In this document: positions 491 through 58,050 of the stretch, piece by piece
Layout: every line of letters starts with the position of its first letter
Position numbering within the stretch: position 1 is the first letter of the stretch
Assembly: GCF_036971445.1 (NCBI RefSeq)
Contig: NC_091477.1
Coordinates: 119,970,001 to 120,034,000, forward strand
DNA: 64,000 bases
Reading direction: 5' to 3'
DNA from: Narcine bancroftii
Taxonomy: Eukaryota
Notes under the pieces: generated by a model
The model's input: only the letters and a program-made list of their open reading frames with translations
Told to the model about the DNA's origin: nothing
Databases searched by the model: none
Translations under genes and position numbers: made by a program

Positions 491-742
491 GGAGCACCAT
501 CATTTTTCCTCTGCCCACCTACTCAACAGACTGAGAGAGGTGGGTATATTTAAACTGTTTATATAGCATTTCGACGGGTTCGTAGATAGGAAAGACTTGG
601 AGAGGTGGGGGCAAAGCCAGGAAAATGGGTCTAGTCTGGATAAATGTTTTGGCCGGCATGGATATTGGGCAGAAGGGTCTTGTTTCCGTTCTATGTCCCC
701 CAATCATTCTGATTCCATTTTCTATTGTGGTTGCTTTACCAG

Positions 743-1579
743 GTGAGCTATACGGCCACGTGCACATGCCTCAACAATAAGAGGGACTTTCCTTCCTTCT
801 TCAGAACGATTCCAAATGATTACTTCCAAGCCAAGGCGTTGGCGCAGCTGATCAAGACGTTTGGATGGACCTGGATTGGGACAGTTCGAAGCGACAACGA
901 TTACGGTAACTTTGGGATGCAGGCGTTCACAGAGGCGGTTCAACAGCTTGGAGTTTGCATTGCCTTCTCCGAGTCTTTCCACAGGACACATTCGAGAGAA
1001 AGATTACTTCACGTTATCCAAATCATACGGACATCCTCCACGAAAATAGTCGTCGCTTTTATCGATCCGAACGACATGGCCATCTTATTGAAGGAAATTG
1101 CCAGGCAAAATATATCTGGCATCCAGTGGGTGGGCAGTGAGGCGTGGATCGCCACTGCGCTTCTACCACCCGAAGAGAACAAGCAGTTTATTACAGGGGC
1201 CATCGGTGTTGCCGTGCGTCAAGTGAATATCCCAGGGTTCGAGGACTTTTTAACCCGTCTCCATCCATCCGACTATCCTGGTAACCTTTTAGTGGAAGCA
1301 TTTTGGGAAGAAACGTTCGGCTGTCGCCTTAAAAGGACGGAGCTCATCACAGGGAGCGCAACGTCGACCTCTCAGGCTCCTCAATGCACAGGAAGGGAGA
1401 GTCTACAAACTGTGTCCAACACCTACACGGATGCATCTCAGCTGAGGGTGACCAACAAAGTCTATGAGGCGACTTACGCCATAGCCCATGCGCTTCACAA
1501 TATGTTCACTTGTGAAAGCGGCAGAGGTCCGTTTGCCAATCGATCTTGCGCCAACACTACACATTTCCAGCCGTGGCAG
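743..1579 (+). CDS. V2R gene A exon 3 (Venus flytrap domain)
   Basis: Acceptor tttaccag|GTGAGC, donor TGGCAG|gtaggt; 837 nt, VSYTATC...FQPWQ. Confidence 0.95.
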
Positions 1580-4500
1580 GTAGGTGACTGTCCAGCTCTT
1601 ACAATAATTCATCCACAGTCTGATTTAAAATGCTGCTCTGGGTTAGGTCTGACATTTTTATTTCTCCGTGTCTCTTTACTGAAGGTTTTGCATTACCTGC
1701 AATCGATAGATTTCACAACTAAAGTCGGGGAGAGGGTACGGTTCAACGAAAACGAGGACTCCATGGCGACTTACGACATTGTCAACTGGCAGCTAAATGG
1801 TGAGGGGGAAGCGGTTGTTTTGATCGTTGGACGTTATGACGAATCGGCATCCCCAGAAAGACAGGTCACGATAAATGACGGATCGATTGTTTGGAGCGGC
1901 GGTGGCAGCGAGGTAATTAGTAATAACTTCACTCTTTTTAACAAGACAGTTTTGAAGATTTTAGTTGACGTAAATGTCCACTTACTTTCTGGAAGGTAGG
2001 AACACAGTAAGTTCGGGATGTACGGGAATTTATAAGTAATTCTCCTGGCGCCTGCTCTATCCAATTGGATAATGTCGAAAGCCAACATGAATCTGAAAGG
2101 CATAAATAAGATGGACAACCAGCGCCTTTTTTCCCCCAGGGCGGGAGTACCACACACCAGAAGACATCAGTACAAAATGGATGGAGGAAAGTTTAGGGAG
2201 GCATCAGGGGTGAGTTTTTAAACAGACATTTGAAGTTGCCTGGAATGCATTGCCAGGAGTGGTGATGGAAGCTGAACCATTTGGAGCATTTAAGAGACTC
2301 TTAATCAGGCACATGGACGAAAGAAATGTAAAGGGTTACGAGGCCTTTAAGGGTTCCATTTTTTAGGAATATGTAGGTCGGCACAACATTGAGGGACGAA
2401 GGTCCTGTACTGTGCTGTAGTGTTCTACGCTCTGTAAAATAGACGCTATTTCCTTGAATTCGTCCCGTGTCCTTTGATAATGAAATACGAGTCCCAATAT
2501 TTTAAAGCCTTAATTTTTCCTCCATTTCCCACAATTGTGAGGGAGAGAAATCAAGGTTTGAATTACTCTTTCTGTGTGAGGAAATATTCTCCCTGATTAT
2601 CCTCCGGAACGGACTCGATCTCATGATAGATATCACCATGACTGCACGTTCTACTTTTTGCAGCGAAATAAACGTGGGCTTTCATTTCGGACTGGGAGTG
2701 CAGGGGATTACCGGAGAGGAGATTGATTCGTGGCAGTTGTAGGGAATGGGAATAGCAACGAGGTAAAGTTTAGACGTTTCTCAGCAGCCACGCGAATGTG
2801 CAATGATTGGATGGATGGTGTGAGGTACAGGCGACATCGTGGACCTAAAAGGGAGGTTGTTATGTTGTAAGTACCACAAGGAAACTCCATCGCGTTTGTA
2901 GGGTGCAGCGAAATGAACAAAGAGAAATCGGTGACCATATATATTTCCCAAAAACGAAGCAGACATTAGCAGATGTCGAATTGCAACCATGAGCAGGAGT
3001 CTTAGATGTTATTATTCACCAACATAAAACGCAGAGGTTTGTCCGGACAATAACCAGGGAGACGCCTGATTACTCAAGAAAGAGATATTGCTAAAAATTA
3101 TGATCACGGCTGATTTGCACTTGTACTTTCGTGGAAAGCTCTGCATATCAAGGTGCACGTCAGAGCAAGTAAGTTATGAAAATGTCCTATGACATTTCTT
3201 TGAAAAATGCGACATTGACGCCTCGTTCTTTTCCACTAGGTCCCTCGGGCAGTTTGTTCCAACAGCTGTTCACCTGGTACAAGAAAAGCATCTCGCAGGG
3301 GGCAGCCCATTTGTTGCTTTGATTGCCTCCCGTGCGCCGAGGGGGAAATCAGTAACACCACAGGTTTGTATAAGTTGTATCCATCCCCACTCTATCCAAC
3401 AGACCACCGACCCTCCTTTGTGCAGTACCATCAGCAGGGGCTTCCACGATTCCCCTCCTTCTCCCATTTTTTTTCTCCTGTCCTGTCCAAAGCTTTCATC
3501 TTTAGACCTGTCTTTTTCATATTTTTGATGGAGGGATCGGACCCGAAACATAGATTACCCTTTCATTCGAGTGAATGCTGCGTGGCCTGTGGACATATGT
3601 GCATTGTACAAATCTCTATTTCCTTCCTTTTATTCAGGATGATCCAATCTCTACACAAAGTCCGTTGTTCTTCAACGCTCCCACCACCCCCCCCCCCACC
3701 CCACCCCAATCCAGCTGCCAGTTCTGACCGCTCCACTTTCCTTGGAACTGCCTCTTCCCCCTCTTCTGTCGAGCCTGAAACAGGTTTTCGATCTGACCGG
3801 TTGGCTACCTAATTCCATCCATGAGTCTCTCCAGCTCTTTTTTTTTGGCCCCGGATACCAGCTCCCTCTTGCATCTGCTTAATTTTAGTTATTAGCGGGC
3901 GTCCTCAGATTTAAGACTATTTATTTTCTTCATTCAAGATTCGATTGACTGCAGTAGATGCCCCGACGATTTCTGGTCCAATGCTCGGCAGGACCAGTGC
4001 ATTCTAAAGCAAATTGACTACCTCTCATTTGTCGAGGTCATGGGGATCATTCTGACCTTTCTAGCGATGATTGGAGCTTGCTTCGCTGCAACTGTTGGTG
4101 GTATTTTCATGCGTTACAAAGACACTCCGATCGTCAAAGCCAACAATTCGGAACTCAGCTTCCTCCTTATCGTCGCCCTGGCCCTTTGCTTCCTCTGTTC
4201 AATTGCATTCATTGGTGAACCCACTGCATGGTCTTGCATGTTGCGCCACACATTGTTCGGTATCAGTTTTGTCCTCTGCCTTTCCTGTGTTTTGGGAAAA
4301 ACTATTGTTGTGGTCCTGGCATTTCAGGCAAAGCTCCCCAGCGACAACGTGACCAGATGGTTTGGTCCTGTTCAACAACGTCTGACTGTCTGTCTTCTTA
4401 CTCTAGTACAGTGCTTGATATGCACCGTCTGGCTGATCAAATCACCGCCCCTTCCTGTCAAAAACATGGAATTATTTAAAGATGTGACCCTCCTGGAATG

Positions 4501-4843
4501 TGACGTAGGATCTGATGTTGCATTTTATTGTGTCCTCGGTTACATTGCCTGTCTGTCATTGGTTAGCGTTATGGTCGCATTTCTAGCGCGAAACCTGCCG
4601 GATAATTTCAACGAGGCCAAATACATCTCATTCAGTATGCTCATATTCTGCGCCGTCTGGATATCTTTCTTTCCAGCCTATATCAGTTCTCCCGGGAAAT
4701 TCACCGTGGCCGTGGAAGTCTTCGCTATCTTGGCGTCCAGTTTTGGTTTGCTTTTCTGTATTTTTGCCCCGAAATGTTACATCATATTGTTCAAGCCGGA
4801 GAGAAATACAAAGAAACATTTAATGGGTAAAGTGGCTTCTTAA
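743..4843 (+). CDS. V2R/OlfC-type class C GPCR, gene A (5'-partial): join(743..1579,1685..1912,3240..3363,3939..4843); exons 1-2 lie upstream of the window
   Basis: Venus flytrap motifs ([29 protein letters not shown]), cysteine-rich domain ([13 protein letters not shown]) and 7TM ([25 protein letters not shown]). All junctions GT-AG; exons 837/228/124/905 nt stay in frame. Confidence 0.95.
1685..1912 (+). CDS. V2R gene A exon 4
   Basis: Acceptor ctgaag|GTTTTG, donor AGCGAG|gtaatt; 228 nt, VLHYL...YDIVNWQ...WSGGGSE. Confidence 0.93.
2040..2435 (+). mobile_element. CR1-type LINE 3' fragment
   Basis: 3'-end motifs (gcctggaatgcattgccagg...ggtcctgtactgtgctgtagtgttcta) repeated many times in the window. 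Confidence 0.6.
3240..3363 (+). CDS. V2R gene A exon 5 (cysteine-rich domain)
   Basis: Acceptor ccactag|GTCCCT, donor CCACAG|gtttgt; 124 nt, [41 protein letters not shown]. Confidence 0.93.
3939..4843 (+). CDS. V2R gene A exon 6 (7TM domain)
   Basis: Acceptor ttcaag|ATTCGATT; 905 nt to TAA; seven hydrophobic helices with class C motifs. Confidence 0.95.
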
Positions 4844-12540: not shown

Positions 12541-15500
12541 GTGAGGTCAGAAATTGGGGCATTAATGCTGATCACTGTTGTTTACAAGTTCCGATTGATG
12601 ATGGTTCATTCTCCATTATTATTGTCTTACTTTTTAAAAACTCCAAGTTTTGTTTCCTTTGATTTTGTAACTATATGAGGCGTGAATATTTTAAATTATA
12701 AATTATAGAAATGTGCTTTTCAATTCGGTTTATTTCATAGACACAGTGGAAATAGCTACTACACTGTGGGTGTTAGGATTATTTTAAAAAGTGATTGCTC
12801 AACATACTCAACAAGTTCAACCAGTCGAGGAGAGAAATCAAGTTTTTTTTCCAGAGAGATGCTGGAGAGACTCAAACTGTATCCATGGCGAGAAGGGTCA
12901 AAATGACAAGATGGGACTGTTTTCAAGATTCTCTAAAGCATAGATGTTGAGTTCATTAGGCATTTTAATCCATATTTGATACCCTATTTACAATATTGTG
13001 GAGCAGGAATTATGACCGATTTGCAATTTCGAGTGTTGGTAGGAAATATAATAATTAGGGTTATATAATGTTTAACCACAACTGTGAAAACGCTCTTCTT
13101 AATTTCCATCTCCGTTCCTCGCCTTCACACTATTCTGTTTCTTCCGCTATAAGTCAGTGTTTTGAGAACGTTCAAGTTCACATTACCCATGGCACAGTGG
13201 AAAGAAAAGTGTTTCGGGGAACAAAGCAGCAGGTCGGCTCTTGCAGACCTACAAAGTAGAACCACAATTCCAGGGTGATCTGCAGGGCTACACAAGCAAG
13301 GCTCCGCAACACTTCCTCTGCTACATCGACAATTACACTGGTGCTGAAATGCACCCATGATGGGATCGTCAACTTTATTCATTTTGCTGTCCTCAAATTC
13401 ACTTGATCCATCTCTAGCAACACTCTTCCCTTTCTCCATTTTTCTGTCTCCATCTTTGGAGACCAACCCTCGACGGACATATTGTAAAAACCCACAACGC
13501 TCACAGGTACTTCGACTACACCTCTTCCCACCCTCTCCCCTGTAAGGATTCCATTCCTTTTTCTCAGTTCCTCCATCTCCTTCGCATCTACTTCCAGGAT
13601 GAGGTCTTCCATGCCACATCATCCGCCATATCCTCCTTCTTTACCCATCAATTAGGCCCTCTCCCGCATATCCTTTATCTGCACATCAGCCCAAATTCCC
13701 CACCCCAAACCTTGTTGACATATCTGTCCATGGTTGAATGCACTGACAAATTGAGAGCATCTGCAAATTAGAAAAAAAAAATCTCTCATTCCATCTGGCA
13801 TCCTCCAACCAGATGGCATTAACATCGACTTCTCCAATTTCCGTTGTATCCACGCCTCCATCTTTCCCGATAACTCCTTTCCTCTACCTCTGTAATTGTC
13901 CCTCTCTCTCTCTCTCTCTCTCTTTTATTTTCTTTCTTTCTCCTTTCCCCAGTTATACTTCAGAGAGAAGCACCCCTCCCCATTCAGTTCTTATGTCTTC
14001 CTATCTATATCCAATAACTTCTTTTATCTGTTGATCTGTTCTTCTCCAGCTGCCCTTTCTTCCCTTCTCCCCAGCCTTGTAATTCAGGTATCTGCCTGTT
14101 TTTCCCTCATAACTTGAAACGTCGGTGATACAGCTTTGCCTCCTCGGCAGCTCTTTCTGAGCTCCTCCGGCATTTGTGGAGAAGAATAGCGAGTTGCAAA
14201 GGGAGGAAAATATCAATTAATTCATAGAAAGTGTGCAGGAGAGCACTGAAGTGGGTTTCGTTCAGCAGCCTGATGAGAGGTGTTGTTTTAATTTTGTGAA
14301 GTTTACAAATCGTGCCCCTGTCTGTCTTGCAGTTTTGACCTCAGGGTGTTTCGCTGGACGCAAATCATGATCTTCGCCATAAAGGAGATAAACCGGGATC
14401 CAACCCTCCTCCCAAATATCACGCTTGGATATAGGATCCACGATTCCTGTGCTTCGCCTTCGCAGTCTCAACGAGCAGCCCTAACACTGATCAATGGTCA
14501 GGAAAAATATATTGCAGAGTTTAAATGCCAGGGAGCTGCTCCCATTCCAGCTATCGTTGGGGAATCTGGATCATCCCAATCAATCTCAATTTCACGCGCA
14601 GTGGCACCCTTTGGAATTTCAATGGTAAGAGACGTTTAAAATCTTTCAGTCACGTAGATATAAGAAAATTGAGGGTTATGAGTGTGAGACGGGAAAAAAA
14701 GTGTTATTGTTTGGAGTAGGTTTACATTGGTCGACACAACGTCGTAGTGCAAGGTTTTCGTTTAATTTTCCATGATCTATGTAACTAAGAGGTCGCACAG
14801 AGTTAAAGATGGAGTTCAAATGGCACAGAACAAAAGCAATATAATTTTGTTATATTGTGTTCGTTCAGATAATGGCAGGAAAGAAACTGTTCTTGAAACC
14901 GGTGGTCCGCTATCACACACTTGATAGGAGGGTAACGTGGAAGGGGTGCGTGTGTGTGGGGGGGGGGTCTTTTAACATGATGGCATATGGTCTCTGTCCA
15001 AGGTGAGGCGGGGTTTAAGGGGAGACATCAGAGGTGCGTTTTTACACCGAGCGTCGTTGGGGCCTGGAATGCATGACCAGCGATGATGATGGAAGTTGGT
15101 AAAATAAGTAAACTTAAAAGATTCTTAAAGATGCAGAGATGGAATTCGGTTGTGGGTCTGAGGTCAGGAATGTTTAGTTTGTTAGGTAGGATTTCATGGA
15201 TCGGACAACATTGTAGGCAGAAGGACCTGTCCGGTGCTGCAATATTCTGTTACGAAATGAAATCCCAACGTCATGTTTGAAAAATGTAAGTGCCACTTCC
15301 AAACATCTTTACTTTGCCATTCACACTAAACAGAAACAATTATTGATTAATACCCATAGCTCCATATGGATAAGAATCCATTGGTTTATATTTTTTTTCT
15401 TTAATTATTTGCAGATCAGTTATTTTTCGACTTGTGCATGCCTTAGCAACAAGAAAGAATTTCCTACATTTTTTAGAACTGTTCCAAGTGATTTATTTCA

Positions 15501-18500
15501 AGCCAAAGCTTTAGCACAGCTTGTGAAACATTTTGGATGGACCTGGATTGCAACCATCGCAGGAGACAATGAATATGGGCGAAATGGAATTCAAGCGTTT
15601 ACTGAGCAGGTAAAGCAAGCTGGAGTTTGCATTGCTTTTTCAGAAACAGTGCTCAGAACATATCCCAAAGAAAGGATACTCACGATCGTGGATACTATAA
15701 AAGCGTCCACTGCAAAGGTTATCCTAGCTTTTGCCTCGGAAGGCGATCTTTACCCTTTGCTGAGAGAAATCGTTCAGCAAAACATTTCTGGGATTCAATG
15801 GATAGCAAGTGAAGCATGGATCACAGCGGCTCGACCATCCGCGATGCAAAATTTCAAATCTCTCGGGGGAACAATCGGATTTGCAAGTCACAAAATGAAG
15901 ATCCCCGAATTTAGAAGATTTCTTTTAAGATTGCGTCCTTCAAATTCAACTGATAATTTTATGAATGTTTTCTGGGAAACATTATTTGGTTGCACTTTTA
16001 AGACAGATCTTCCCAATGCAGTGAGATGTTCAGGGCAAGAAGATTTACTGAAGCTGAATAATTCCTTCTTTGACGTGAGTGATTTAAGAGTGACGTATAA
16101 CGTCCACAAAGCAGTTTATGCCATAGCCCATGGAATGCACAGCTTGCTATTTTGTCGAGATCAATTATTGGGAGTCCGTCTCTGTGCTAATGTATCAAAC
16201 ATTGATCCATGGCAGGTAAGAAAATGTAATGGTAAATAATTCCCTAATGTAATTAATAGAAGTGACGTGGGGTGAATGCCAGCTCAGATTTGCTATTTAA
16301 GAAATATTTAGATGGGTAAATGCAAGGGAGGGGTGTGGAGGGCGCAGATCATCGGAATTCTCCAGAATAGTAGTTCGGCACAGACTAGATGGGTCGAGGG
16401 GCTTGTTTTTGTACTGTAGTGTTCAATGAATATTAGGTTAATCATAAATTGAACATTACTGGAGATGCCTTCTATTTTTAAGAATGTAATGTGAATTAAA
16501 GTATAAGTTAATGCCTTTTAGTCTTATAGATGCATTCATAATTAAATGTTCCTCCAAAATGATTACTGAAAGTACCAAGACAAATGCACAAAACATGGAA
16601 TTTATTTGACCCTGGAGCAGAGAAGACTGGCGCCTAATTTGCTCTTTATTACAAACGAGTTGAGACTTCCCCGCACATCAGCTCCATTCCCCAGGTCACC
16701 TTCATACCTTTATCGGTCTTATCTCAAACAGATCACTGGTTTTTGTCTCATTTGACATTAAAATAATCTGACGTGCTGCGTCTTGCCCAAAAATATTCAT
16801 TATCGCTCGGGAGTGAAACCGATCGCTCATCCATAGGTGATCTTTAGGCGTCACTGTGAATAATTTGAAGCATGAGGTGAGAAACAGAGGCACTCCTGTC
16901 GCTGTCTGTTACTCCACGCAGTCATGAACTTATGTCGACATTGTGTTAGCATTCACCATGTTCAATAAGGGTTTTCTCTTTTCAGCGAAGGGTGGGGGGT
17001 GACTTAATACTACTTAAAAGCTGCTGAGATGCTTGACCATACGGCGGACAGGCAGCCCTTGGTTCTCGGGGCGACAGCAACATATTTATTAGGTGAGGGG
17101 AGGAATGTTTGGAAAAAAGTCAGGGGTCTGGTTGTTTTCAGCAAGGAGTGGTGTGTGCCGGAAATACTTTGTCAGGGATGGTGGTGGAGCCTGGTGCAAT
17201 AGGGATATTTAAAACGCCTAGACAGGCACGTGGATTGAAGAAACATAAGTATGAGGCAAGGAATGTTTAGATTTTGGAGTAAGTTTGTTTAGATTGGCAC
17301 AATATCTGGGGCCAAAGGACTGTACTGTGTTGTAATATTCCATGTTCTATACAACAGCAATCATCGCCCATAATTGAAGATTTGTTGGTTAATCTTCCCC
17401 TACATGACCAACGCCTTGAGAAATATTGCACTAGAAAAGCAAGATCGGTTGAAAACCACAGAGGGAACTGAGAATGTAGAAGATATTAAGGTCAAAAATG
17501 GGAACTTCCCATGCACTCGACGCATCACGATATTTGGGTTTCTTTTTAGGTTTGCCCGCTTAGCAAGATATTTCCCCATCTCTCCTGACGTCCCATCAGT
17601 GTTAATTATTATTTAAATGTTCATATGAAGCACATTGGGGTGTTCTATGTTTTTGCATTGTCTGAATATAGATTGTCATGTTAGATTTTAATTGTTGCAC
17701 TATTAAATAACCTTAACAACCCGTATGAAGAAAATTCTGCTCTGATGTTCTCCTTGTGGCTGCCAGCTCTTCCATCACTTGCAAGCTGTGAGATTTACAA
17801 GCCACCTCGGGGAACATGTCTATTTTGATCCAAATGGGGACCCGCCTGCATTGTACGACATTATAAACTGGCAGTTGAATGACAAAGGGTTTGTCGAACA
17901 TGTGACAGTTGGTTACTTTGATGCATCTGGAGCACCAGGGAAAGAGTTCATGATAAATGAAGAGATTATTCTGTGGCATGGAAACAAAAGTGCGGTAAGT
18001 CTCTGTTTGAAGTGTGGGCTTCATTATAAATGTTGTTATTTGAATAGTGGGTTGGCTGCAGGTGCAGTTATACATTTTTAAAAGTTTGGACCAGTTGGTT
18101 AGCTTCAATTCCAGAACTGAAGGGCATCGATTTAAGGTGAGAGGGGAAAGATCTAAGGGGAACCTGATCCATCACTCATTTCACTCATAGGGCGACTCAT
18201 TTCTGGAACTACCTGCCAAAGGTGGGTGTGGACGCTGCTATGGGCATTTGGGACAATATGGTTTAGAATGCTAAGGATAAATGTAGGCACATAGGACTGG
18301 CGCAGAATTCTATCTTGGTCGTCATGGGCGAGTTGGGTTGATACATGGTCTCTGACTCTTCCAATATTTAGGAAGTAATTCATCGTATAGTGAAAATAAT
18401 GCCATGGATCCTGCTCTTCAGTGTTGATGGGTCAAAAAAGAACAACCGGTGTTCTAAACACCTGGAGATCCTGGCTCTTTTACTATGCTTCATCTACACA

Positions 18501-21071
18501 CAGAGGTCGTGAGACTGAAGTCTGATTTCGTCGTCTATATCAATCAAATAATTCCACGTGATTCCACTGAATCTCTGCACCAAATGGGTTCAGGAATCTA
18601 ACTTCACGCCTTTTAATGTCAATCTTAAACTCTGGTGTTGCCAGTGTGAAGTTTGCGCGTCCTCCCTGTGGCTGCTTAGGACTCCGCCCAGTGCTATGAT
18701 TCCCCCCCCCCCCCCCACATACCAAGTCATGCTAGTTGCTGTATTAATTGGCCACTGTAAATTGAACCAGTTGGAATCTGGAGGGCGCTGATGGAAGCAA
18801 AGCCAAAATTAAATGTCAGGTTAGTGTAAGCAAGTGTCAGAAAGTATTCGATGGGCTGAAAGTCATGTTTCCATGCTTGAAGGTTTCTATGACTCGATTG
18901 ACATTTTTCTTTCCTCACATTACCAAGGTGCCACACTCAGTGTGCAGTGAAAGCTGTCCTCCTGGTAAGTGGAAAGCTGTACAAGATGGACAACCCATCT
19001 GTTGCTTTGACTGCATCCCATGTGCCGAAGATGAAGTCAACAATGCAACAGGTTAGCAAAAATCATTTAGCTGGGAAGGCCTTTAGTCTGATGCTAATTG
19101 TTATTTCCATGACAAAAACACGCCAGGGACGAAATACATGGACCACCTTCCTGGTGGGCACAGCACAGCGGTGCAGCTAGTAGAGTTGCTGCCTCCCAAC
19201 CCCAGAGATTCGGGTTCGATTCCGACCTCTGGCGCTATCTGTCTGTGGAGATTGCCCGCTCTCCCTGTGATTGCGTAGGGTTCCCCCGGGTGCTCTGGTT
19301 TCCTCCCACGTCCCAGAAACGTGCGGAGACGGTATGTTTAACTCGGACTAACGTGTAGGTGAGTGGTAGAACCTCGGATGTGGGAATGAGGGGAGAATAG
19401 ATAACTGTGAGATGGAATGGATTAGAGGGGCTGATTGGCATCCGTCTATGACTTTGAATCCTATGAAAGAGTGACAAAAACGGTTTGCAATAAACACAAG
19501 TGCTGGAGAAACCCAGCAGGTCAGGCATCGTCCATTGGAACTAAAAGGCAATAAATATTTCGGGCCTGGAATACTCGAATTTAAGTACCATAGATATTTT
19601 TCGATTTTACTGAGGTCCAGCAACAGATGCAAGTTAACTGGAAAAGAAAACCTAGCAGAAATTAAGAGGTTTTTTTTAAAACCACGAAGTTTGTTTATTG
19701 TCATGTTTACCAAGATGCAGGATAAACATTCGTCGTGCATTCATACTTACTCATCAACCCCAACCCCCAAAAAATATAGAATTCAGGGTTACAGGTGGAG
19801 ATCGGTGAGAACCGTGCAAATACCAATGGGATAATAACTTGGTGAGTCTGACAGGAGGCGAAAATAAAGTATCCTTGAATCTGGTAGTGGGTTCTCGCAC
19901 ATTCATGAATCTTATTCCTGTAAATGGGGGGGGGGGGGGGGGTTAAACAGAGTATGGTTGGCAAAGGTGAGTTCCTTGATAACGTTGGCTGGTTTCCCGA
20001 GGCGACGAGAAGTCAAGCTAGACCCGTAGGTTCTTACAATCTGAAATACGCAGCTTGAGAGGATGCAGGAGGGAATTTTAATGTCAATGTTTAGAATTAC
20101 ACATGGTATGATTTTAAAGATAAAGCAATTCTCGTTCATTGTTAACACATGGCTGAATTCTCCTAGATTCCGTGGAATGCATGAAATGCCCCTTGGAATA
20201 TTGGTCCAACGATGACAGGCAGCGCTGCGTAATGAAAGACATCGAGTTTCTCTCCTTTCAAGATAACATGGGAGTTATACTGATGACTGTGGCGTTATTC
20301 GGAGTATTTATCACACTAGCTATTGCATGCGTCTTCCTTTATTGCAAGGACACTCCCATCGTTAAAGGCAATAACTCGGAACTGAGTTTCCTATTGCTGT
20401 TTGCCTTGGTGCTTTGCTTTCTGTGTTCGCTCACCTTCATGGGCAGGCCGTCCGTCTGGTCCTGTGCACTGCGCCACACGCTCTTCAGCGTCGCATTCGT
20501 CCTTTGCCTGTCCTGCATTCTGGTGAAAACGATCGTTGTACTCAAGGCGTTCCGGGCGACCGTTCCTCAGAGGGGGACAATGAAGTGGTTCGGGGCTTCC
20601 CAACAGAGATTCACAGTCTGTGCGTGTACTCTCGTCCAGGTTCTGATCTGCTCCATGTGGCTTGCAAGGGCCTCGCCATTCCCAGCGAAAGATATGACCT
20701 ATCACAACACAAAGGTGATCCTGGAGTGCCAGGTGGGGTCTGCACTGGCTTTCTATTGTGCGCTGGGCTACATTGGGGTTTTATCCGGCTTGTGTTTTGT
20801 CCTGGCCTTTCTAGCTCGAAAGCTACCCGGCCATTTCAATGAGGCAAAACTCATAACCTTCAGCATGCTTATCTTCTGTGCTGTTTGGCTGACCTTCATT
20901 CCAGTCTATGTCAGTTCTCCTGGCAAATACGCTGTTACTGTTCAAATCTTTGCCATTTTGTCGTCCAGCTTTGGTTTGCTTTTCTGCATTTTTGTTCCCA
21001 AGTGTTACGTTATCTTGTTGAAGCCTGAGCTAAATACAAAGAAGACTCTGATGGGAAAGATCCCTTCTTAA
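12332..21071 (+). CDS. V2R/OlfC-type class C GPCR, gene B, complete: join(12332..12540,14333..14624,15415..16215,17767..17994,18928..19051,20167..21071), 852 aa
   Basis: Signal peptide, [40 protein letters not shown], cysteine-rich domain, 7TM. Exons 209/292/801/228/124/905 nt sum to 2559 nt with no internal stop. Confidence 0.95.
13170..14170 (+). mobile_element. Penelope-like element fragment in gene B intron 1
   Basis: Degenerate coding remnants ending in [18 protein letters not shown]-like sequence typical of Penelope GIY-YIG C-termini, then a pyrimidine-rich tail. Confidence 0.55.
14333..14624 (+). CDS. V2R gene B exon 2
   Basis: Acceptor cttgcag|TTTTGAC, donor TCAATG|gtaaga; 292 nt. 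Confidence 0.93.
15415..16215 (+). CDS. V2R gene B exon 3
   Basis: Acceptor ttgcag|ATCAGT, donor TGGCAG|gtaaga; 801 nt. Confidence 0.95.
17767..17994 (+). CDS. V2R gene B exon 4
   Basis: Acceptor tgccag|CTCTTC, donor AGTGCG|gtaagt; 228 nt, [17 protein letters not shown]. Confidence 0.93.
18928..19051 (+). CDS. V2R gene B exon 5
   Basis: Acceptor accaag|GTGCCA, donor CAACAG|gttagc; 124 nt, [10 protein letters not shown]...CCFDCIPC. Confidence 0.93.
19157..19455 (+). mobile_element. tRNA-derived V-SINE (HE1-like)
   Basis: B-box gggttcgattcc plus V-domain gggtgctctggtttcctcccac; related copies at 41577-41760, 43445-43655(-), 61294-61515, 63024-63170. Confidence 0.75.
20167..21071 (+). CDS. 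V2R gene B exon 6 (7TM)
   Basis: Acceptor tcctag|ATTCCG; 905 nt to TAA. Confidence 0.95.
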
Positions 21072-25433: not shown

Positions 25434-26356
25434 TTATAGCTGAATTGGTTTTTTGGGACAAGTTCGGCTCATCAGATGTTTCTTGGTGTTTTGTTCTGGT
25501 TTTAACAGGATGATGTAACATTTGGGGACAAATATGCAGATAAGCACACCAAAACTCGATGCCAAAATGGCAAAGATTTCGACAGCCACAGCGTACTTCC
25601 CTGGAGAACTGGTGTAGGCTGGGATAAACGCCAGCCACACTGCACAGAAGATCAGCATGCTAAATGTGATGAACTTTGCCTCATTGAAATTATCTGGGAG
25701 TTTTCGAGCTAGGAATGCCAGAACAAAGCTGGCGCACGACAGCAAACCGATGTAACCCAGCACACAGCAGAACGCAGCCACTGAGCCTAAATCACACTCA
25801 TAGATGATCTTCTCCTTGTAATATTTGGTCTGCTTCACTGGGAAGGGAGTGGCCAGGAGAAGCCACAGCAGGCAAGTCACCATCTGGATGGCTGTGCAGA
25901 GCAGGACACTGAGGATCTGCTGCAGGGTCCCGAACCACTTGGTCAGGTTGTGGCCGGGGAGAGTGGTTTTAAATGCCACAAGCACCACCAGGGTCTTGGC
26001 CAGCACGCAGGAGAGGCAGAGAACTGAACTGACGCCGAACATGGTGTGCCTCAGCCTGCAGGACCAGGTGGAGGGTTCCCCGATAAAGGCCAGCGAGCAG
26101 AGGAAACACAGCGCCAAGGAGAAGAGGAGCAGGAAACTGAGCACAGAGTTGTTGGCTCGAACGATGGGGGTTCTCCTGTAGTACCACACCACCCCTGCTA
26201 CAGTCACCACGCTGGCTGTTCCCAGCAGGGACACTGTTGTCAGGGTGATCCCCAGGGTGTCCTCCAACGACAGGTACTCGATGGGTTTGGGGATGCATTC
26301 ATTCCTCAGTGAGTTGGGCCAGTCTTCCGGTGAACACGGGACACAGTTGAGAGAAT
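25434..26356 (-). CDS. V2R gene C exon 6 (7TM)
   Basis: Acceptor cctgcag|ATTCTC; 923 nt to TAA. Confidence 0.95.
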
Positions 26357-29300
26357 CTGCAGGTAACATTTTAAAAGATCAATGTGCAATCAAACAGAAT
26401 TTCAATTATATATAATCAAACATTTCCTTTGGTTTTGCAGTACACAAAACTGTTGGAGAAACTCAACAGGTCGCACAGCCTCAATAGGAAGTAAAGAATA
26501 GCTTATGTTTATGACCCGAGTTCTTAGATCGGCGTCCATTGACCTTTTCAGGCTGCATAATTAAGGTCATAATTTGGTGCCTAAAAATCTACTTCTCTCC
26601 TCAGCCAAATTGTTGTTAGAGGGATTTACTGAGGTATCTAAGCTTAAAAGGGGTGCACATAGTGGGGATAGCCAGCACGTTTATCGTGGGGTGACAATTA
26701 CAATTACCTGAGGACATCTGTTTAAGGTGAGTACAGTCAGGTTCAGGGGAGACATCAGAGGTATGAGATTTACTCAGGGAGTGGTGGGTGCCTGGAATGC
26801 ATTGCCAGGGTTATGGTGAGGTGGTGGTACAATAGGGCATTCAAAAGATTCTTGGATAGGCACAGAAGAAAAATGGACGGTTATGGGTGCGAGTTAGGGA
26901 AGGATTAGATTTTTGTGGACTAAGTTTACATAGGTCAGCTCAACATTGTGGGCTGAAGGGCCTGTATTATGCTGTAAAGTTCTATGATCTATGTAAAACC
27001 CAATCAGAATTGCATACCTGTTGCATTGCTAATTTCACCATCTGCACACAATAAGCAATCAAAGCAGCAAATCTGTTCCCCACTCCGACTCGCTCTCCTT
27101 GTTCCTGGGGGACAGCTTTTACTGCACGATGACAAGGGAACCTGACAGAGCAAAACAAGAAGAGTAAAAAAATCAAATTCTGTCCTGATTTCAGTGGATT
27201 TCCTGATCCAAATCCCCGATGTAACAATGGGGAAGCAACCTTGAAACATATGTTCTGGTCTTGTCGAGGTCTTCAACATTATTGGAGGGAATTCTTTGTG
27301 TTTGTCAATAATATTACATGTTAATCTTGAACTTCATCCTTTAACAGCTTTGTCTGGAGTGTTAGGTGATATTAATGAGCTATGTTCTTCATCTGACCAT
27401 ACTAGCAACTCTCATGGCACCAGGTACTTGGATGGAAAATCCTGTTTCACCCCCTAGAACTCAGTGGTTATGTCATGTCTTAATTTAGAAAAGATCAGGA
27501 GTTCCGCATTGTATATTAACATTAGTTTGAATAACATTTGGAGTCCTTTTATGGACTATTTTCACGGTCATTAAATCTATTTGTTTTGATTATTGAATGT
27601 ATTTATTTATGTACGTGGTTTTAACTTCAGTCAGTCATGTTTTATGGATTTGGAAGAACTATACCACCTTTAGTTTTATGTCAAAACATCCCAGGATTTT
27701 TTCAGAAGAGTGTGAGTTCTTTGGGGTTTTTTTTCTGTCATTTCGACAACATTGTATGGGGAAGGGGTATAATGCTATTGTTTTATTTTTGGAAATATAC
27801 TTGTATTCTTCATATTTGGTAACCTTGCGTTCTCTATACAATGCATGACTGTTCTATAAAACTCAATAAAAAGATTGAAAGAGAGAAGCAGAAAATCTGT
27901 TCCCCACTTCTACTCGCTTTCCTTGTTCCTGGGGGGTGAGGGGCAGCTTTTACTGGAACCTGACATATTAACAAAAAAAAACGAATTCGGGTCTGATTTC
28001 AGAACAGTTCATTATCCGATGAATTGGTTACATTCCATCAATCCTGTGGAAAGGTTTGCCGCAAGTCGTTGCCTTGCTTCCCATTTGTGTAAGACATTGT
28101 GAAATAGATGTGCACCATTATGTCTCCAGTAGTGCAACTCTATGCTCAGGATGGTCACCACTGGATAAAGTTTGTGGTGAGATTTTATTTGTCCTCACGT
28201 GCCTTCGTATAGACTCATTTAAAAGGCAGCCAAAGAGGCACGATTGGGTTCTTCCCTGGAAAATCAAGCTCAGTGTATCTAAAACTGAGATTGTGATTCA
28301 TTTATATAAATCACTTACTGTCACGTGGACTGAAGTAGTGAAAAATATTGTTTTGTGTGCTATTCAGGCAAGTCAGCCTTTATTTCATACATTATATAGA
28401 GCAAGGATGAAAACAAAAGTGCAGGATATATTGTCAACTAAAGGTAGAGTTGGGTTGGAGTTAAAGAGGTAAAAACAGTGCAAGGCAGCATCTTCTACTA
28501 ATGGAGATCCATTGAAGAGTCCAACAACAACAGGGAAAGAAACCCATCTTTGAATAATTAGGTTGGTGCTTTCTGCCCACCGTACATGAATAAAACAAAA
28601 ATACCCTAACGTTATTATCACATCTGTTTCCTCTATTCTTAAAATAGACTCTTTGTAGAACTCTCTAAACTGTTTGTAATGTCATGTGCCCAAATTTATG
28701 TCCAATCCATTGGCTCATGTAATGTTATTTCTGAAAAAATTTGCATAATTACAAATATATAACATCAAGGGCCATCTCAATTGATCAGATTAGGGGAGGC
28801 ATCAGGGGTAAGGTTATTTTTATTCAGAGAGTTGTGGGTGCCTGGAAGGCCTTGCCAGGGTGGGTGCTGGAGGCAGCAACAATAGGGACATTATAGGTCA
28901 GTACAACACTGAGGGCTGAGGGGCCCGTACTGTGATGCAGTGTTCTATGCTCATTTGTTTTCTAGGTAATTGATTTTTTTAAAAAACAAAAACCTACATG
29001 CCTAAAAAATTAATTCAGGGGTTATTTCTGTCATGAGCAGAAAATGTTCCTGTCAAACAGATTTTTACAATAGTGATGAAGTAAGTTATAAGTTTTTGTA
29101 ATGTGTTTTCCCAGAGATTATATATATTAATCGGACTGTTCATCAACAGTCAATTCATATAGTCATAAAACACTACTGCACAGTACAGGCCCTTTGGCTT
29201 TCGATGTTGCGCTACCCATTTATTCCTTTAAAAAAGTACTAAATGCTCCCATACCTCTCTATTTTAAATCCTTAAAGTATGTGCTTTGAGAAAGCTGAAA

Positions 29301-32300
29301 GAATGCCCATGTCGACTCAAAGAGCCACACAAGATGGAATAGGCTCTTTGGCCCAACTTATCCATACTGACCAAGTTGGCAGCCTGGACTAGTCCCACTC
29401 TCCGGCATTTGGCCCAAGCTCTTCCTACCCATCTACCTGGTTTCAACATGGACTCAATGAATGAATAAAAATGCTGATGTAGCTTCAAAGCAGATGAAGA
29501 GTAAGTGGGTTACCTCAGTCTTTCCACCAGCCCAGACGATATCCTTTTCATTTAGTTCAAGGCCAGTTTCTGAAGTGGCATCGAAACGGCCGACGTGCAC
29601 TAATTTGACCGAGTCTTCTTCACTTCCCTGCCAATTCACAATGTCGTACGCTGCGACACTGTCGCCATTTTCATCAAAATTAATCTCTTCTCCCGATTTA
29701 CTGATGAATCTCAATCCCTCAAGATAATGCACAAGCTTCACAAAAGGTGACAGAGTTTAGGGCAAATGGCAATATCTTTACAAAACCAATTGACAGAATC
29801 AGCCTAGGCCATTTCACTTGGAATTTAATCAATAGTTTCAAATCCTTTCAAATTCACAATTATTCATGGAACTGCGTGGAACTTACAGAGCAGAAATGTT
29901 GAACCAATGTATAAGAATCCCCTCGCTTTCATCTCACAATGTGCATATGTGTATTCTTTGGCCCATTAAGCAATTTCCCTTCATATAATCAGACACCTAC
30001 ATTCAGGTACATATCCTAGTGAGAGGTACTCCCAGTTCAAGTTTCACGTACCAAGATGCAGTGAGAAAGCTTTTGCGAGCAGTCTAGCTCATCAAAGCAT
30101 AGAGCGGGTATAACACAGCACAGGGAGTAGCTTTGAGAGATCATCAGTACAGAGCATAGGCAACCTTTTTTCAGTAGTATGGGGTTCATTCAAGAGTCTG
30201 ATAACAGGGGGGAGAAACTGTCTTTGAATGTGGTGGTGCGTGATCTCGCACTCGGGAATCTTTGTGCCAATGGTGATGATAAAGAGAGTGTGGCCAGGGT
30301 GGGATGAGTCTTTTAACATGTGGTTTTTCCAACACTAGAAGAATCAATGGCATCCAGGGAGAAGTCTGTATGGTGGACTGGGCTGCGTGAACAACTCTCG
30401 GCAGTTTCTTCAACTATGCAGTGATGTGCCTTACAGGGTGTTTCCAAAGATGCACATGTTAAAGTTGTTAATGGGTTCAGGTCATATTCCTAATTTCCTC
30501 AGGTTTCTATGGAACATGATCTCCTTTCCAAACACCAGCCCCTTGTGAAAAACCATCACCTTTCCAACACAACCCCCTGCGGAACGCCGTCACCTTTCCA
30601 ATGCAAATCCCCTGTGGAACACCTTCACCTTTCTAAACAATAAGCCCCTATGGAACGCCATCACCTTTCCAATGCCAACCTCCTGTGGAACACCATCACC
30701 TTTCCAATGTCAATCCCTTGTGGAACACCATCACCATTCCAAACATCATCACTTTTCCAAATGCACATGTTAAAGTTGTTAATGGGTTCAGGTCATATTC
30801 CTAATTTCCTCAGGCTTCTATGGAATATGATCTCCTTTCCAAACACCAGCTCCCTGTGAAAAACCATCACCTTTCTAACACCAACCCCCTGTGGAACACC
30901 ATCACCTTTCCAACGCCAACCACCTATGGAACACCTTCACCTTTCCAATGCCAACCCCCTGTGGAACACCATCAGCTTTCCAAACACTAAGCCCCTATGG
31001 AACACCATCACCTTTCCAACACCAACCACCTATGGAACACCATCACTTTTCCAATGCCATCCCCCTGTGGAACACCATCACCTTTCCAAACACCAGCACC
31101 TTGTGAAAGACCATCACCTTACCAAACACTAACCCCCTGTGAAACGCCATCACCTTTCCAAACATTAAGCCCCTACGGAACACCATCACCTATCCAATGC
31201 CAATCCCCTGTGGAACACCATCACCTTTCCAATGTCAACCCCCTGTGGAACACCATCACCTTTCCAAACACCAGCACCTTGTGAAAGACCATCACCTTTC
31301 CAACACCAACCCCCTGTGGAACACCATCACCTTTCCAAACACCAGCCCCTTGTGAAAAACCATCACCTTTCCAACACAACCTCCTATGGAACACCGTCAC
31401 CTATCCAATGCAAATCCCCTGTGGAACACCTTCACCTTTCTAAACAATAAGCCCCTATGGAACACCATCACCTTTCCAATGCCAACACCCTGTGGAACAC
31501 CATCAGCTTTCCAAACATTAAGCCCCTATGGAACATCATCACCTTTCCAATGCTAACCTCCTGTGGAACACCTTCACCTTTCCAATGTCAACCCCCTGTG
31601 GAACACCATCACCATTCCAAACATCATCACTTTTCCAAATGCACATGTTAAAGTTGTTAATGAGTTCAGGCCATATTCCTAATTTCCTCAGGCTTCTATG
31701 GAATATGATCTCCTTTCCAAACACCAGCTCCCTGTGAAAAACCATCACTTTTCCAAACACCAGCTCCCTGTGAAAAACCATCACCTTTCCAACACCAACC
31801 CCCTGTGGAACACCATCATCTTTCCAATGCCAACCCCATGTGGAGCACCATCTCCTTTCCAAGCACCAACCCCCTGAGGAACACCATCACCTTTCCAGAC
31901 ACCAGCACCACTTTTCAGTGCCTTTCCTCCTAAAGAAGTATCTGCATTTATATTTATCCTATCACCGCAATTCTCCACCCTGACTGCAGTCAGTACAAAA
32001 TGTTCACAGTCCCTTGGGGCAGCAGAATGGACCAGTCATAGTCTGGCCCAGGATTAATGAGAAGGCTTTGAATGGCCCATTGAGGGAGGTGACAGTGGTT
32101 TCAATTGAGCTCCCGTGACCGCGAGTCTGTGCCCAAGACAGTGACACCTATTAATCGGCGGCAGCCACGAGGGGCTGCAGACTCCAGGGATGTGGAGGAC
32201 TGGAACAGGGCACCAGAGGACAGGAAGATCATGAACTCTCTGAGAAGGAGTAGTGGAGGAGACAACCCACAAGGTTGGTGATCACGGCAGTGAACCAGTG

Positions 32301-35300
32301 AGGAGGTTCTGCAGCTAAAGGACCAGTATATGCGGCAGGCTGCTGACGACACAAGGCAAGGAACCCGTGGAAGCCGTGGACTGCTGGAGATTGGCTCGAA
32401 CTGGCTGGAGGGGTTCCAGACATCAGAACTGGGAAGTGAGGAGGTGCTGAGGGTGAGAATGTCAGAGGTTTGGATCCGGAACTTGGGTTGCTGATGGTTT
32501 GGACTGGACTTTGTGTGGCTGTGGGGGATGCAGAAGCACTGGAGGCAAATCTACAGACACTCGGTGACTCTGGTGTGATTCTCTTTTGCTTCTCATTCTC
32601 TGACTGTAAATCTGATTGTAAGAGATGGTTAGGCAATTCCTGCCGGTGGCGAATCTGTGCCATGCAGCAGGCAAAAAGAAATTTCATGTAATACAACACT
32701 GTTTTATTACCATGATAATCAATTGAATCTTGAAGCCTTCACAGTAACTGGGGCAGAACTGGTGTCTGTGATTCCCCACACGACCACCCAAACCATGGCC
32801 CTCCAGGTGCCAATCTCACCTTTAATTTACTTCCCTTTCCCTCTGCCCCTCCTCAGATGTGTTGACCCTGGTGCAATGAGCATTCCTGTAAAATGCCTGA
32901 AATACCTTACCTGCCCTGGTCGAAGATTGAAGATATTTGCGCATGTTCCATTGTCAAATGGGCCTCTACTTTGTTCACATGTATGCAAATTGTGAAGAGC
33001 ATGGGCCACAGCATACACTGCCTTGTACACATTATATGAAATCCGTAATTCTGACACATCAGAATATATATTGTAAGTACTGTTTAAATCTTCTAATCCG
33101 CTGCACCTTTTCAGAGATGATGCCACTTCCCACTGCTTCTTCAGTTCAGCTAACGTCCTGAAGGAACATTTAAACGTTGTCTCCCACAATTCTTTCACAA
33201 AGATATTATTTGGAGTCTTGAACGGATGGGCTTCGAGAAGGAAATCCCTCAGGCCTGGGATTTCCCCCCTGTGGATAGCAAATCCTATTGTTCCACTCAG
33301 AGAGAGGAAATTCTCTCTGGTTGCCATTAAAGCTGATGTAACCCATGCCTCACTTGCAATCCATTGCCTGCCAGTGATGTTTTGCTTCACAATTTCTCTG
33401 ATTAAAGGGTACGCATCCCCCTCAATGGCAAACATGACGATGACCCTGGCCGTCGACGCTCTGATTGCCTCCGTGATCTGAAGGATCTTCTGCCGGGAGT
33501 ACACCTTGGGAATGACTTCGGTGAAGGCGATGCACACGCCGAGCCGACTAACCTGCTCACTGAATGCTTGAATGCCGCTGCGGCCATAATCGTCGCTGCC
33601 AGCCACTGATCCCACCCAGGTCCAGCCGAACCGATGTACCAGCTGAGCCAAACCCCGGGCCTGGTGGACATCGCTCGGCATGGTCCTGAAGAAGGCTGGG
33701 AACTCGTTCCTGTTTCCGAGGCAGGTGCAGGAGGAGAAGTAGCTGACCTGGAGGAACACACACATCACCCGTCATATGATTGAGCCCGGTGCGCAGTTCT
33801 GGTGCCCCAGCTACAGGAAGGATGTCACTGAGCTGGAAATGTTGCAGATAAGGTTCACAAGGACATAACTAGAATTGGAGAGTGTGTGAGGGGATTTTCC
33901 CCTGTACCTTCAGAAACTGAAGGCTGACATGGGAAGGGTTTATAAAAATCACGGGGGCATAGATAAATAATCATAGCCTTTTTTCCCCAGATTAAAAAAG
34001 GAATCAAAAACTAGAGGATATTGGATGCCATAGATGCTCTGTGGTTAGTAAAAAATTATTTGAGGTGGTATGTGAGTGGGGAATCACTGAATTGGGAGCA
34101 GGAGCCGGCCTTCTGTCCCATGGAACCTGCTTTGGTATTCCATGAGATCGTGGCTCATCCACCAACCTGCCTTTTCTCCATAACCTTTAAATCCCCCACT
34201 GCAAAATATCTATTTGACTCTGTTTTAAATATATTGATTCAAGAAGGAGCTACTGCTTCATTGCAGAGAGAATTCCACAGATTCACTACCCTCCATGAAA
34301 ATCAGTTCTTCCTCATCCTTCTCTCAAATCTGCTCCCCTGAAACTTAAGGCGATGACCCTGGTTTCTCGTCTCACCTGCCAGTGAAAACAACCTCCCTGC
34401 ATCTTGCTTATCGATTCCTTTAATAATGTCCTTGTCCTTTTGCACAATTGATATTATTGGGAACTTTGAACGGATGGGCTTCGAGAAGGAAGTCCAATGT
34501 ATAGTTACGGGTTACTCGATCTCTCATAAGCAAGCCTCTCATGTCCGTAATCAACCTGGTGAACCTCCTTTGCACCACCTCAAATAAAGAGACCAGAACT
34601 ACGTGCAGTACTCCAGGAGCAGCCTCACCAGGATCCTGGACAGTTGCAGCAGAACCTCCCTGCCCTTAAATTTCATCCCTCCAGCAATGAAGGCCAATAT
34701 CCCATTTGCACCTGCTGACCAGCTTTTCGTTATTCATGCACAAGGACTCCCAAGCACCTCTGCACAACAGAATGCTATAATCTTCCTCCAGAGGAGGTGA
34801 GACCCAGAGTAGGTGAGATACAAAGCAGGGTACATAGGTTAAGGGAGAGAAGCGAAAGGTTTCATGGGAACTTCTTCACACAGAGAGTAGCTCAGTATGG
34901 AATGAGCTGCCAACTGAGAAGGTGAAAACAGGCTCAATTGTAACATTTAATAAGAATTTGGACAGGTACATGGATTTGGAGAGGTATTTAGGGCTATGGA
35001 CTGGATGCAGGTCAGTAGGACTAGGCAGAAAAATGGATCAGCACAGAGGAGAAGGGCCAAAAGGTCTACTTCTGTGCTTCTTTCATGTGGGTCTTTAAAA
35101 CTGTTAAATCAAGGACTTTAAATTAGAAAAAGATGTGTTTCTTGCAGAGCTGCCTTTGACTTGAAAATATTACTCAGTCGTTGGCTTTAGGGAGCCATGG
35201 TTTGTTAGGCCAGAAGTCAGGTGGGCCTCACACTGAAAAAGGTTGAGAATTACTGGATGAATATGAGCCAAACACAGGCAAGTGGAACTTGCTTTGGTGA

Positions 35301-44967: not shown

Positions 44968-45280
44968 TTTTTTTCTCTTTGTTTTTATTGAGTTTTATAG
45001 AACAACACATTGTATAGAGAACACAAGGTTTCCAAATATGAAGAATATAAATACATTTCCAAAATATTTAAAAAAAATGATGCACCTCTTCCCTTACAAT
45101 GTCAGAATGACAAAAGAACTCTTATCCCCATCGGAAAATAAACCCGGGATGTTTTGACATAAAATTAAACGTGGTATAGTTCTTCTGAATCCATAAATCA
45201 TTACTAACTGAGGGAAAAAACATGTACTTAAATAAATACATTCAATGATCAATACAAACAGATTTAATAAGAATGTGTCA
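44968..45280 (-). mobile_element. L1 3' UTR fragment (same family as 27195-27885)
   Basis: tttttattgagttttatagaaca..cattgtatagagaac matches the reverse complement of 27825-27875. Confidence 0.75.
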
Positions 45281-57221: not shown

Positions 57222-57556
57222 CTCTAAAGTGTCGGCTATATTATCCTACAAGAGTACTTTATCAGTTCCAATATAGCAGCAAAACACATTATCTTACATA
57301 AATAAAACTACGATGGAAAATGCAACACACGAGCAGAAGAAAGGAATATAGTCCAAAAGAATAAAGAATCATAGGGTTAGCTGAAATATTAATACCACAT
57401 GCAAGGATTCAGCAGGGCAATCTAAGGATGCCGGTGCATTAAGAACATTCACAGAAGAATGTTGAGAAATTACCATTCACATTTCTAAACAAGCACAACA
57501 AAAGTAAAGGAGGATGCAGCGTTAGAGCCAAATATTCATTGTAAGATTGGTATATA

Positions 57557-58050
57557 GTATATGTTACTTCTTTCATCAATAGATCTATGTTCTTATATGT
57601 TACTTCTTTCATCAATAGATCTATGTTCTTATATGTTACTTCTTTCATCAATAGATCTATGTTATTATATGTTACTTCTTTCATCAATAGATCTATGTTC
57701 TTATATGTTACTTCTATCATCAATAGACCTATGTTCTTATATGTTACTTCTATCATCAATAGATCTATGTTCTTATATGTTACTTCTATCAATAGATCTA
57801 TGTTCTTATATGTTACTTCTATCATCAATAGATCTATGTTCTTATATGTTACTTCTATCATCAATAGATCTATGTTCTTATATGTTACTTCTTTCATCAA
57901 TAGATCTATGTTCTTAAATGTTACTTCTTTCATCAATAGATCTATGTTATTATATGTTACTTCTTTCATCAATAGATCTATGTTATTATATGTTACTTTC
58001 ATCAATAGATCTATGTTATTATATGTTACTTCTTTCATCAATAGATCTGT
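57557..58050. repeat. 36-bp minisatellite, 14 copies
   Basis: Unit tatgttacttctttcatcaatagatctatgttctta; two copies are 33 bp; contains palindrome ATAGATCTAT. Confidence 0.97.

Follow-up and report, generated by a model that had tools for sequence, protein, structure and literature searches.

The fourth intron of a V2R/OlfC-type receptor gene of the electric ray Narcine bancroftii carries a second, partial copy of exon 5, which is probably a mostly skipped, neutrally decaying pseudo-exon that arose when a LINE inserted with a long target-site duplication. The feature is real and its kind, an L1 insertion with a large duplication, is already known. It lies in a stretch of 64,000 nt (NCBI RefSeq assembly GCF_036971445.1, contig NC_091477.1, positions 119,970,001 to 120,034,000), designated the window, to which the coordinates refer unless another contig or locus is named. 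In the original prediction, the copy was regarded as a candidate alternative last exon of an ectodomain-only receptor, and a silent pseudo-exon was given as an equal possibility; this second option is the best fit to the data described below.

Judged by its sequence, the host gene, designated gene C (38415-25434, minus strand), is a V2R/OlfC-type receptor gene and a member of a cluster on contig C21. It is composed of six exons (38415-38201, 35778-35487, 33747-32911, 29735-29514, 27141-27018, and 26356-25434) with GT-AG boundaries and an open frame of 870 amino acids, in which Pfam recognizes an ANF_receptor, an NCD3G, and a 7tm_3 domain. The ANF_receptor domain ends upstream of exon 5, so that exons 1-4 contain all of it in addition to a signal-peptide-like start; the NCD3G domain begins at the first residue of exon 5. 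Exon 4 (29514-29735, minus strand) ends in phase 0 at 29514 and is followed by a donor at 29513; the intact exon 5 (27018-27141, minus strand; 124 nt) encodes the start of the cysteine-rich domain. The only public model of gene C, found in an exon-3 protein search confined to proteins of at least 490 amino acids (which a 483-aa model without exon 1 would escape), is P0021, a 790-aa NCBI model labelled Narcine bancroftii that forms a one-member cluster. Its exon 3 is 100% identical to that of gene C, it is contained within the 870-aa frame, and it splices the downstream, intact exon 5. Exon 1 (38415-38201, minus strand), which encodes the signal-peptide-like start, is absent from P0021 and extends gene C to 870 aa; a TATAAA is located about 45 nt upstream of the ATG. 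The gene C protein is 66-81% identical to 16 aligned proteins of rays, sharks, and chimaeras, and the downstream exon 5 is free of indels and 81% identical to that of the Hemitrygon orthologue.

Several other features of the region were recorded. Two further V2R genes with apparently open exons are located at about 700-4840 and 14290-21070 on the plus strand, the second being convergent with gene C, and V2R exon-3 copies with in-frame stops, i.e. pseudogenes, occur in the neighbouring cluster (L038:8799-8978, G000:C21:120489636-120490351). A minisatellite array with a 35-36-bp unit and higher-order blocks (30507-31933) fills much of intron 3 of gene C, and a tandem repeat of about 36 bp at 57442-58090 is open in several frames.

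The partial copy of exon 5 belongs to a direct repeat (27062-27194 and 27886-28002; 133 and 117 bp). As had been predicted, the repeated segment comprises the exon-5 acceptor together with two-thirds of exon 5 from its 5' end; it reached an anchored score of 105 compared with at most 13 in 14 swapped controls. In the orientation of the gene, the upstream copy (27886-28002, minus strand) consists of 43 nt of intron and 74 nt of decayed exon 5, with the acceptor AG at 27961-27960 and the start of the pseudo-exon at 27959, and in the downstream copy (27062-27194, minus strand), 53 nt of intron with a branch-point-like motif (TTGAT) at -32 end in the annotated acceptor and are followed by the first 80 nt of exon 5. 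The intron parts differ at nine of 43 aligned sites (21%) and by a 10-nt deletion, the exon parts at five of 67 sites and by a 13-nt deletion and a 7-nt insertion, the latter being a tandem slip of CCCCCCA in the upstream copy. An extension of the repeat to 27209/28017 was rejected, because LINE homology already begins at about 27198. The two exonic indels, the T9 tract, the cag|GTT at 27959, the 41-aa peptide that it opens, the stop at 27836-27834, and the AATAAA at 27787-27782 were all found in the sequence as described, and the pseudo-exon shares the phase of exon 4 (phase 0 at 29514; start of exon 5 at 27141). The hypothetical alternative last coding exon would accordingly comprise 41 codons and a TAG (27834-27959, minus strand), the last 15 codons being antisense LINE tail, with the gene-strand AATAAA (27782-27787, minus strand) located within the LINE 49 nt past the stop. 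Overlooked until now were the 10-nt deletion, which lies in the pyrimidine tract of the upstream copy, and the loss from this copy of both branch-point-like motifs, TTGAT at -32 and TTAC at -24; the remaining branch-point-like matches are at -9 and -53. The reported loss of the first cysteines is more precisely a loss of three of the four cysteines in the copied part (exon-5 positions 6, 10, and 25). At one position, the working exon 5 has an arginine where the 16 other aligned proteins have a lysine, which is retained in the upstream copy.

Between the two copies lies a 5'-truncated LINE fragment (about 27198-27885, plus strand, antisense to gene C) composed of the end of ORF2 with a CCHC-like motif, the 3' UTR, an AATAAA at 27865-27870, and an A/G-rich tail. 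The element itself is present as predicted, and its start has to be moved from 27195 to about 27198, positions 27195-27197 being ambiguous. It is called L1-type on the basis of its repeat, tail, truncation, and nick-site features. The element was matched at 41 other places among 40 candidates scored of 499, with 74-89% identity. Its 3' end, ...GATTGAAAGAGAG, is shared with the sister copies, and the family sequence continues further upstream in other copies, which indicates the 5' truncation. Divergence from the family majority amounts to 11.3% for the fragment and ranges from 6.6 to 11.4% among 30 loci. Among eight sister fragments, two gave a zf-RVT match that narrowly missed the curated cut-off (E about 2e-5), and the 42-aa ORF2 piece of the window's LINE gave no match. 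A second copy of the family (44982-45268 and towards 45014, minus strand; 79% identical) is present in the window, and from its antisense end a similar hydrophobic peptide can be read in a frame due to chance. In addition, all three sequencing runs X1-X3 contain a contig from another locus that ends in the 3' terminus of the LINE family (matches 27854-27883; 1457 and 1487 nt in X2 and X3, respectively) and that may represent a host 3' UTR running into a LINE copy.

The long direct repeat is likely to be the target-site duplication of the LINE insertion. It adjoins the 3' end of the LINE without a gap and its 5' end within 3 nt, and this abutment, together with the swapped controls, supports the predicted origin by a LINE insertion whose long target-site duplication copied the acceptor and two-thirds of exon 5. 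The duplication and the insertion appear to be of the same age, since the intron parts have diverged from each other by 21%, roughly double the 11.3% by which the LINE differs from its family majority. At the edge of the repeat, within exon 5, a putative first-strand nick site is found (27055-27066, minus strand; bottom strand CTTT/GA at 27061/27060), which on comparison with the consensus given in the available text of two L1 studies (PMC3219598, PMC5223499) would be a degenerate, TTTT/A-like L1 endonuclease site. A separate tandem duplication, formed for example by break repair and only later entered by the LINE at its junction, would account for a length of 133 bp, far above the usual 5-30 bp, and for the fact that none of 26 sister LINE copies shows a duplication of this size. 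However, the abutment at both ends, the endonuclease-like site at the edge, and the matching ages speak against it, as does the known, if rare, occurrence of large duplications, and we regard it as very improbable. In HeLa cells, duplications of more than 100 bp are reported to accompany at most 10% of L1 insertions (PMC5223499, available part). For zebrafish LINE insertions in wild-type DT40 cells, a large duplication is likewise reported in one of 25 cases in the accessible part of another study (PMC2666801).

The sister copies were inspected for duplications of their own, three of the 30 loci being dropped from these and the family-trait counts below for lack of the 3' end. Ordinary duplications of 13-18 bp are present at four loci (L003, L011, L023, and L024), and six of the 26 copies score at least 20, including L007 and L008 (on G000:C9 and C1, respectively), which are weak candidates for diverged duplications of about 50-55 bp (scores of 24 and 26 compared with at most 13 in controls). 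A general tendency of the family to make long duplications is unsupported, as none of the 26 copies comes near 100 bp and only the two weak candidates reach about 50 bp. A 3' transduction was also rejected, because the segment past the tail is a duplicate of the local target and lacks another tail of its own.

An insertion of this kind suggests the following course of events. The endonuclease would have nicked the DNA inside exon 5 at CTTT/GA, after codon 26, and the second strand would have been broken about 133 bp away in intron 4, so that the acceptor together with 53 nt of intron and 80 nt of exon became duplicated. An ordinary duplication of 14 bp would split exon 5 after codon 26; with the long one, the last 44 nt of the exon and their donor would again be preceded by 53 nt of intron, the TTGAT, the acceptor, and the first 80 nt of the exon. 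In a strict sense, it is the so-called upstream copy that still has the acceptor in its original intronic surroundings, and the acceptor of the gene model is the rebuilt one. We infer that the long target-site duplication, a rare kind of event, restored exon 5 in full on the downstream side of the LINE and in this way spared the gene from a split exon; selection would then keep the downstream copy and leave the upstream copy free.

What the upstream copy has kept was compared with a simulation of neutral decay (20000 runs with the LINE's own mutation rates, in which today's downstream copy stands in for the original sequence). The simulated acceptor had a median score of 7.3-7.9 compared with 7.34 observed, the AG was kept in 74-78% of the runs and the frame in 27-29%, and a score of at least 7.34 and a kept frame occurred jointly in 10-14%. 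An acceptor like the observed one is what neutral decay typically leaves behind, and the kept frame is a mildly lucky outcome. Acceptor strength and kept frame, both offered earlier as hints of function, are consequently matched by neutral decay. Two indels in 80 nt correspond to the neutral expectation (P of two or more = 0.45), the exonic substitutions assignable to the copy number at most four of about 66 where seven are expected (P = 0.12, not significant), and a constraint test on the alternative exon, which has little power on 80 nt, revealed no departure from neutral decay. The hydrophobic tail, the stop, and the AATAAA, likewise offered as hints of function, are traits of the LINE family: an equivalent tail peptide closing at the same stop is present in 18 of 27 family copies, and an AATAAA in the sense of the gene strand is located at the same place in 20 of 27. 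The family carries, in antisense, a ready-made hydrophobic peptide with a stop and an AATAAA. Nor is a restored frame needed for an ectodomain-only product: all three antisense tail frames close within about 36 codons, and the hydrophobic stretch is the only thing whose translation depends on the frame.

Whether the upstream copy could still be used was assessed with a home-made acceptor matrix derived from 69 class C receptor acceptors of this genome, mostly of V2R genes; the splice matrices are built from few sites, and the real donors were scored on a matrix that included them. On this scale, the upstream acceptor scores 7.34 bits compared with 9.44 bits for the downstream one and lies above 61% of the 69 real acceptors. 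It is the best of 136 AGs in intron 4, which makes it plausible as an acceptor, as predicted, and the best of 640 in the introns of gene C; 14 of its 20 upstream nucleotides are pyrimidines, compared with 17 for the downstream acceptor. The best cryptic donor past the copy scores 2.2, lower than 32 of 33 real donors, compared with 8.5 for the true exon-5 donor, so that the copy would be usable only as a terminal exon or as the start of a long exon with a premature stop; its use as a cassette poison exon was rejected on the same ground. In exon definition, an acceptor is favoured by pairing with a strong downstream donor. The downstream acceptor would win by pairing with the strong donor 124 nt further on, and the upstream acceptor, having no good donor, would be open to use only as a terminal exon. 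Intron 4 contains six sense AATAAA hexamers, four of which are located upstream of the copy, so that the hexamer alone says little here; the AATAAA of the pseudo-exon is preceded by a TGTA and followed by a short TGTTGT.

These properties leave some room for a leaky, unselected alternative last exon, with a noticeable minority of transcripts spliced from exon 4 to 27959 and ended at the antisense AATAAA of the LINE. The predicted product would indeed contain the whole Venus flytrap domain without the 7TM part, as originally proposed, and would comprise 563 aa (522 + 41); it would serve no function under selection and might be retained in the ER and broken down. An acceptor score within the real range, the terminal exon as the sole productive route with no competing donor, and an AATAAA 49 nt past the stop would be in accord with such leakage, and skipped terminal exons are described as a common class in human in the available text of PMC5928244. 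The loss of both branch-point-like motifs and of 10 nt of the tract, the four AATAAA further upstream in the same intron, and, as weak evidence, the lack of an annotated protein with the tail speak against it, and we consider it rather unlikely. A search with the 41-aa alternative exon against longer proteins, a weak search, gave nothing at E <= 10. Contigs of the three runs, which are assigned by species label and presumed to be RNA, include an exact 171-nt piece in exon 6 (26114-26284), and a 188-nt contig matches 29737-29691 exactly with its other 141 letters elsewhere, consistent with an exon 3-4 splice if the runs are RNA. At 99% likeness, the contig coverage stops short of the end of exon 4, the acceptor of the copy, and the body of exon 5 and is uninformative on either junction.

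A mostly skipped pseudo-exon accounts less readily for some of these details, namely the acceptor that is still strong (above 61% of the 69 real ones and top AG of 640), the TGTA and TGTTGT around the AATAAA, the frame kept despite two indels, the few substitutions, and a tail as hydrophobic as the weakest helix of gene C. A selected isoform would rest on co-option of the exon: its Venus flytrap domain, secreted or kept at the membrane, would bind odorant or disable dimers in the manner of GABAB1e, the duplication having supplied the acceptor and the first codons and the antisense 3' end of the LINE the hydrophobic tail, the stop, and the poly(A) signal. Exons 1-4 would provide it with a signal-peptide-like start and the whole ANF_receptor domain, its frame, acceptor, and AATAAA have all survived about 11% divergence, and class C receptors offer a precedent in the available text of PMC2987798. 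Yet survival of these features needs no selection, as they are expected jointly in 10-14% of neutral runs or belong to the LINE family, the two indels look independent and would imply a frameshifted intermediate, and no other exon-5 duplicate was found among 17 intact exon-5 matches in the loci examined. The tail, too, argues against it: its hydrophobic core spans only about 14 residues before a Glu-Gln, with a Kyte-Doolittle value of 1.86 over 19 residues compared with 1.84 for the weakest helix of gene C. With an N-terminal signal peptide ahead of it, a hydrophobic stretch acts as a stop-transfer anchor and not as a tail anchor; the tail of the predicted product would do so only marginally. 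GPI anchoring is presumably doubtful in view of the short spacer and the charged residues in the tail. Related ectodomain-only splice forms of class C GPCRs, of the kind named in the title of PMC8577127, reportedly exist. On balance, a selected isoform is very unlikely, and equally so the broader idea that a single retrotransposition built a complete alternative last exon and that the ray uses an ectodomain-only V2R as an odorant-binding or dominant-negative olfactory partner. A literature search conducted mostly on titles and the beginnings of abstracts, with patchy coverage of older V2R cloning papers, yielded no report of ectodomain-only V2R isoforms in cartilaginous fish.

A separate observation concerns a paralogue of gene C, P0055 (L032, G000:C21:119906500-119916499), located about 87 kb away on the same strand. 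Identity between the two genes reaches 99% in exon 6 (97.8% at the DNA level, with 901 nt compared) and 94% in exon 3 as far as its 5' two-thirds are concerned (window 25462-26362 and 32989-33750). It is only 51-59% in exons 2, 4, and 5 and in the remainder of exon 3, and a paralogue pair of Heptranchias behaves alike (99% and 93% compared with 62-76%). In quick unrooted trees, the divergent parts group mostly by paralogue, exon 6 groups by lineage for both same-species pairs with a support of 0.99, and the 5' part of exon 3 groups by lineage for the rays but not for Heptranchias. Judging by this pattern, two ancient paralogues may have undergone gene conversion repeatedly, and only in certain exons, throughout the cartilaginous fish; gene conversion among OlfC genes is reported for catfish in the accessible part of PMC6588630. 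The exon-restricted homogenisation may merit more attention than the pseudo-exon.

The insertion in gene C clearly illustrates, in a natural germline setting, how long the target-site duplication of a LINE can be; here the duplication likely turned an exon-splitting insertion into a tolerated intronic one. In its available part, one genome-wide survey capped target-site duplications at 30 bp (PMC2912911), so that surveys of this type can miss such long cases. A rescue of an exon by a long duplication was not reported in the literature searched, mostly by title and start of abstract and with patchy coverage of subscription journals. If the alternative exon were used and conserved, an ectodomain-only V2R would have arisen in a single insertion step, as a candidate soluble odorant-binding protein in cartilaginous fish.

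Among known systems, gene C resembles the chondrichthyan V2R/OlfC receptors as far as these are described in the available text of PMC10116579, in which the word "isoform" does not occur: it is a clustered six-exon class C GPCR gene with ANF_receptor, NCD3G, and 7tm_3 domains, but differs in bearing a LINE and a partial exon-5 duplicate in intron 4. The insertion shares a 5'-truncated element, a degenerate TTTT/A-type nick, and duplicated flanks at both ends with the L1 insertions with large duplications (>100 bp) of Gilbert et al. (2002, 2005) as cited in the accessible text of PMC5223499 and PMC2912911. Those events arose de novo in cultured cells, whereas the ray insertion is an old germline event, and its duplication, unlike theirs, includes a splice acceptor together with coding sequence, the gene concerned having remained intact. 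With skipped terminal exon or intronic polyadenylation isoforms, as presented in the available part of PMC5928244, the hypothetical exon has in common a new intronic acceptor followed by an AATAAA; its use would leave a product lacking the transmembrane part. Antisense L1 sequence at the end of an exon is also known from L1 exonization in mouse (PMC2176070, available part); there the splice site is L1-derived, whereas the putative acceptor of the ray pseudo-exon, known here from genomic sequence, would be a duplicate of the host's own. The closest functional parallel would be GABAB1e and related ectodomain-only class C GPCR forms, in which, according to the accessible text of PMC2987798, the extracellular ligand-binding part is kept and the 7TM part is absent, as predicted in the ray; GABAB1e, however, is made by exon skipping, is expressed, and blocks heterodimers, whereas the ray form is hypothetical and would possess a hydrophobic end derived from a LINE.
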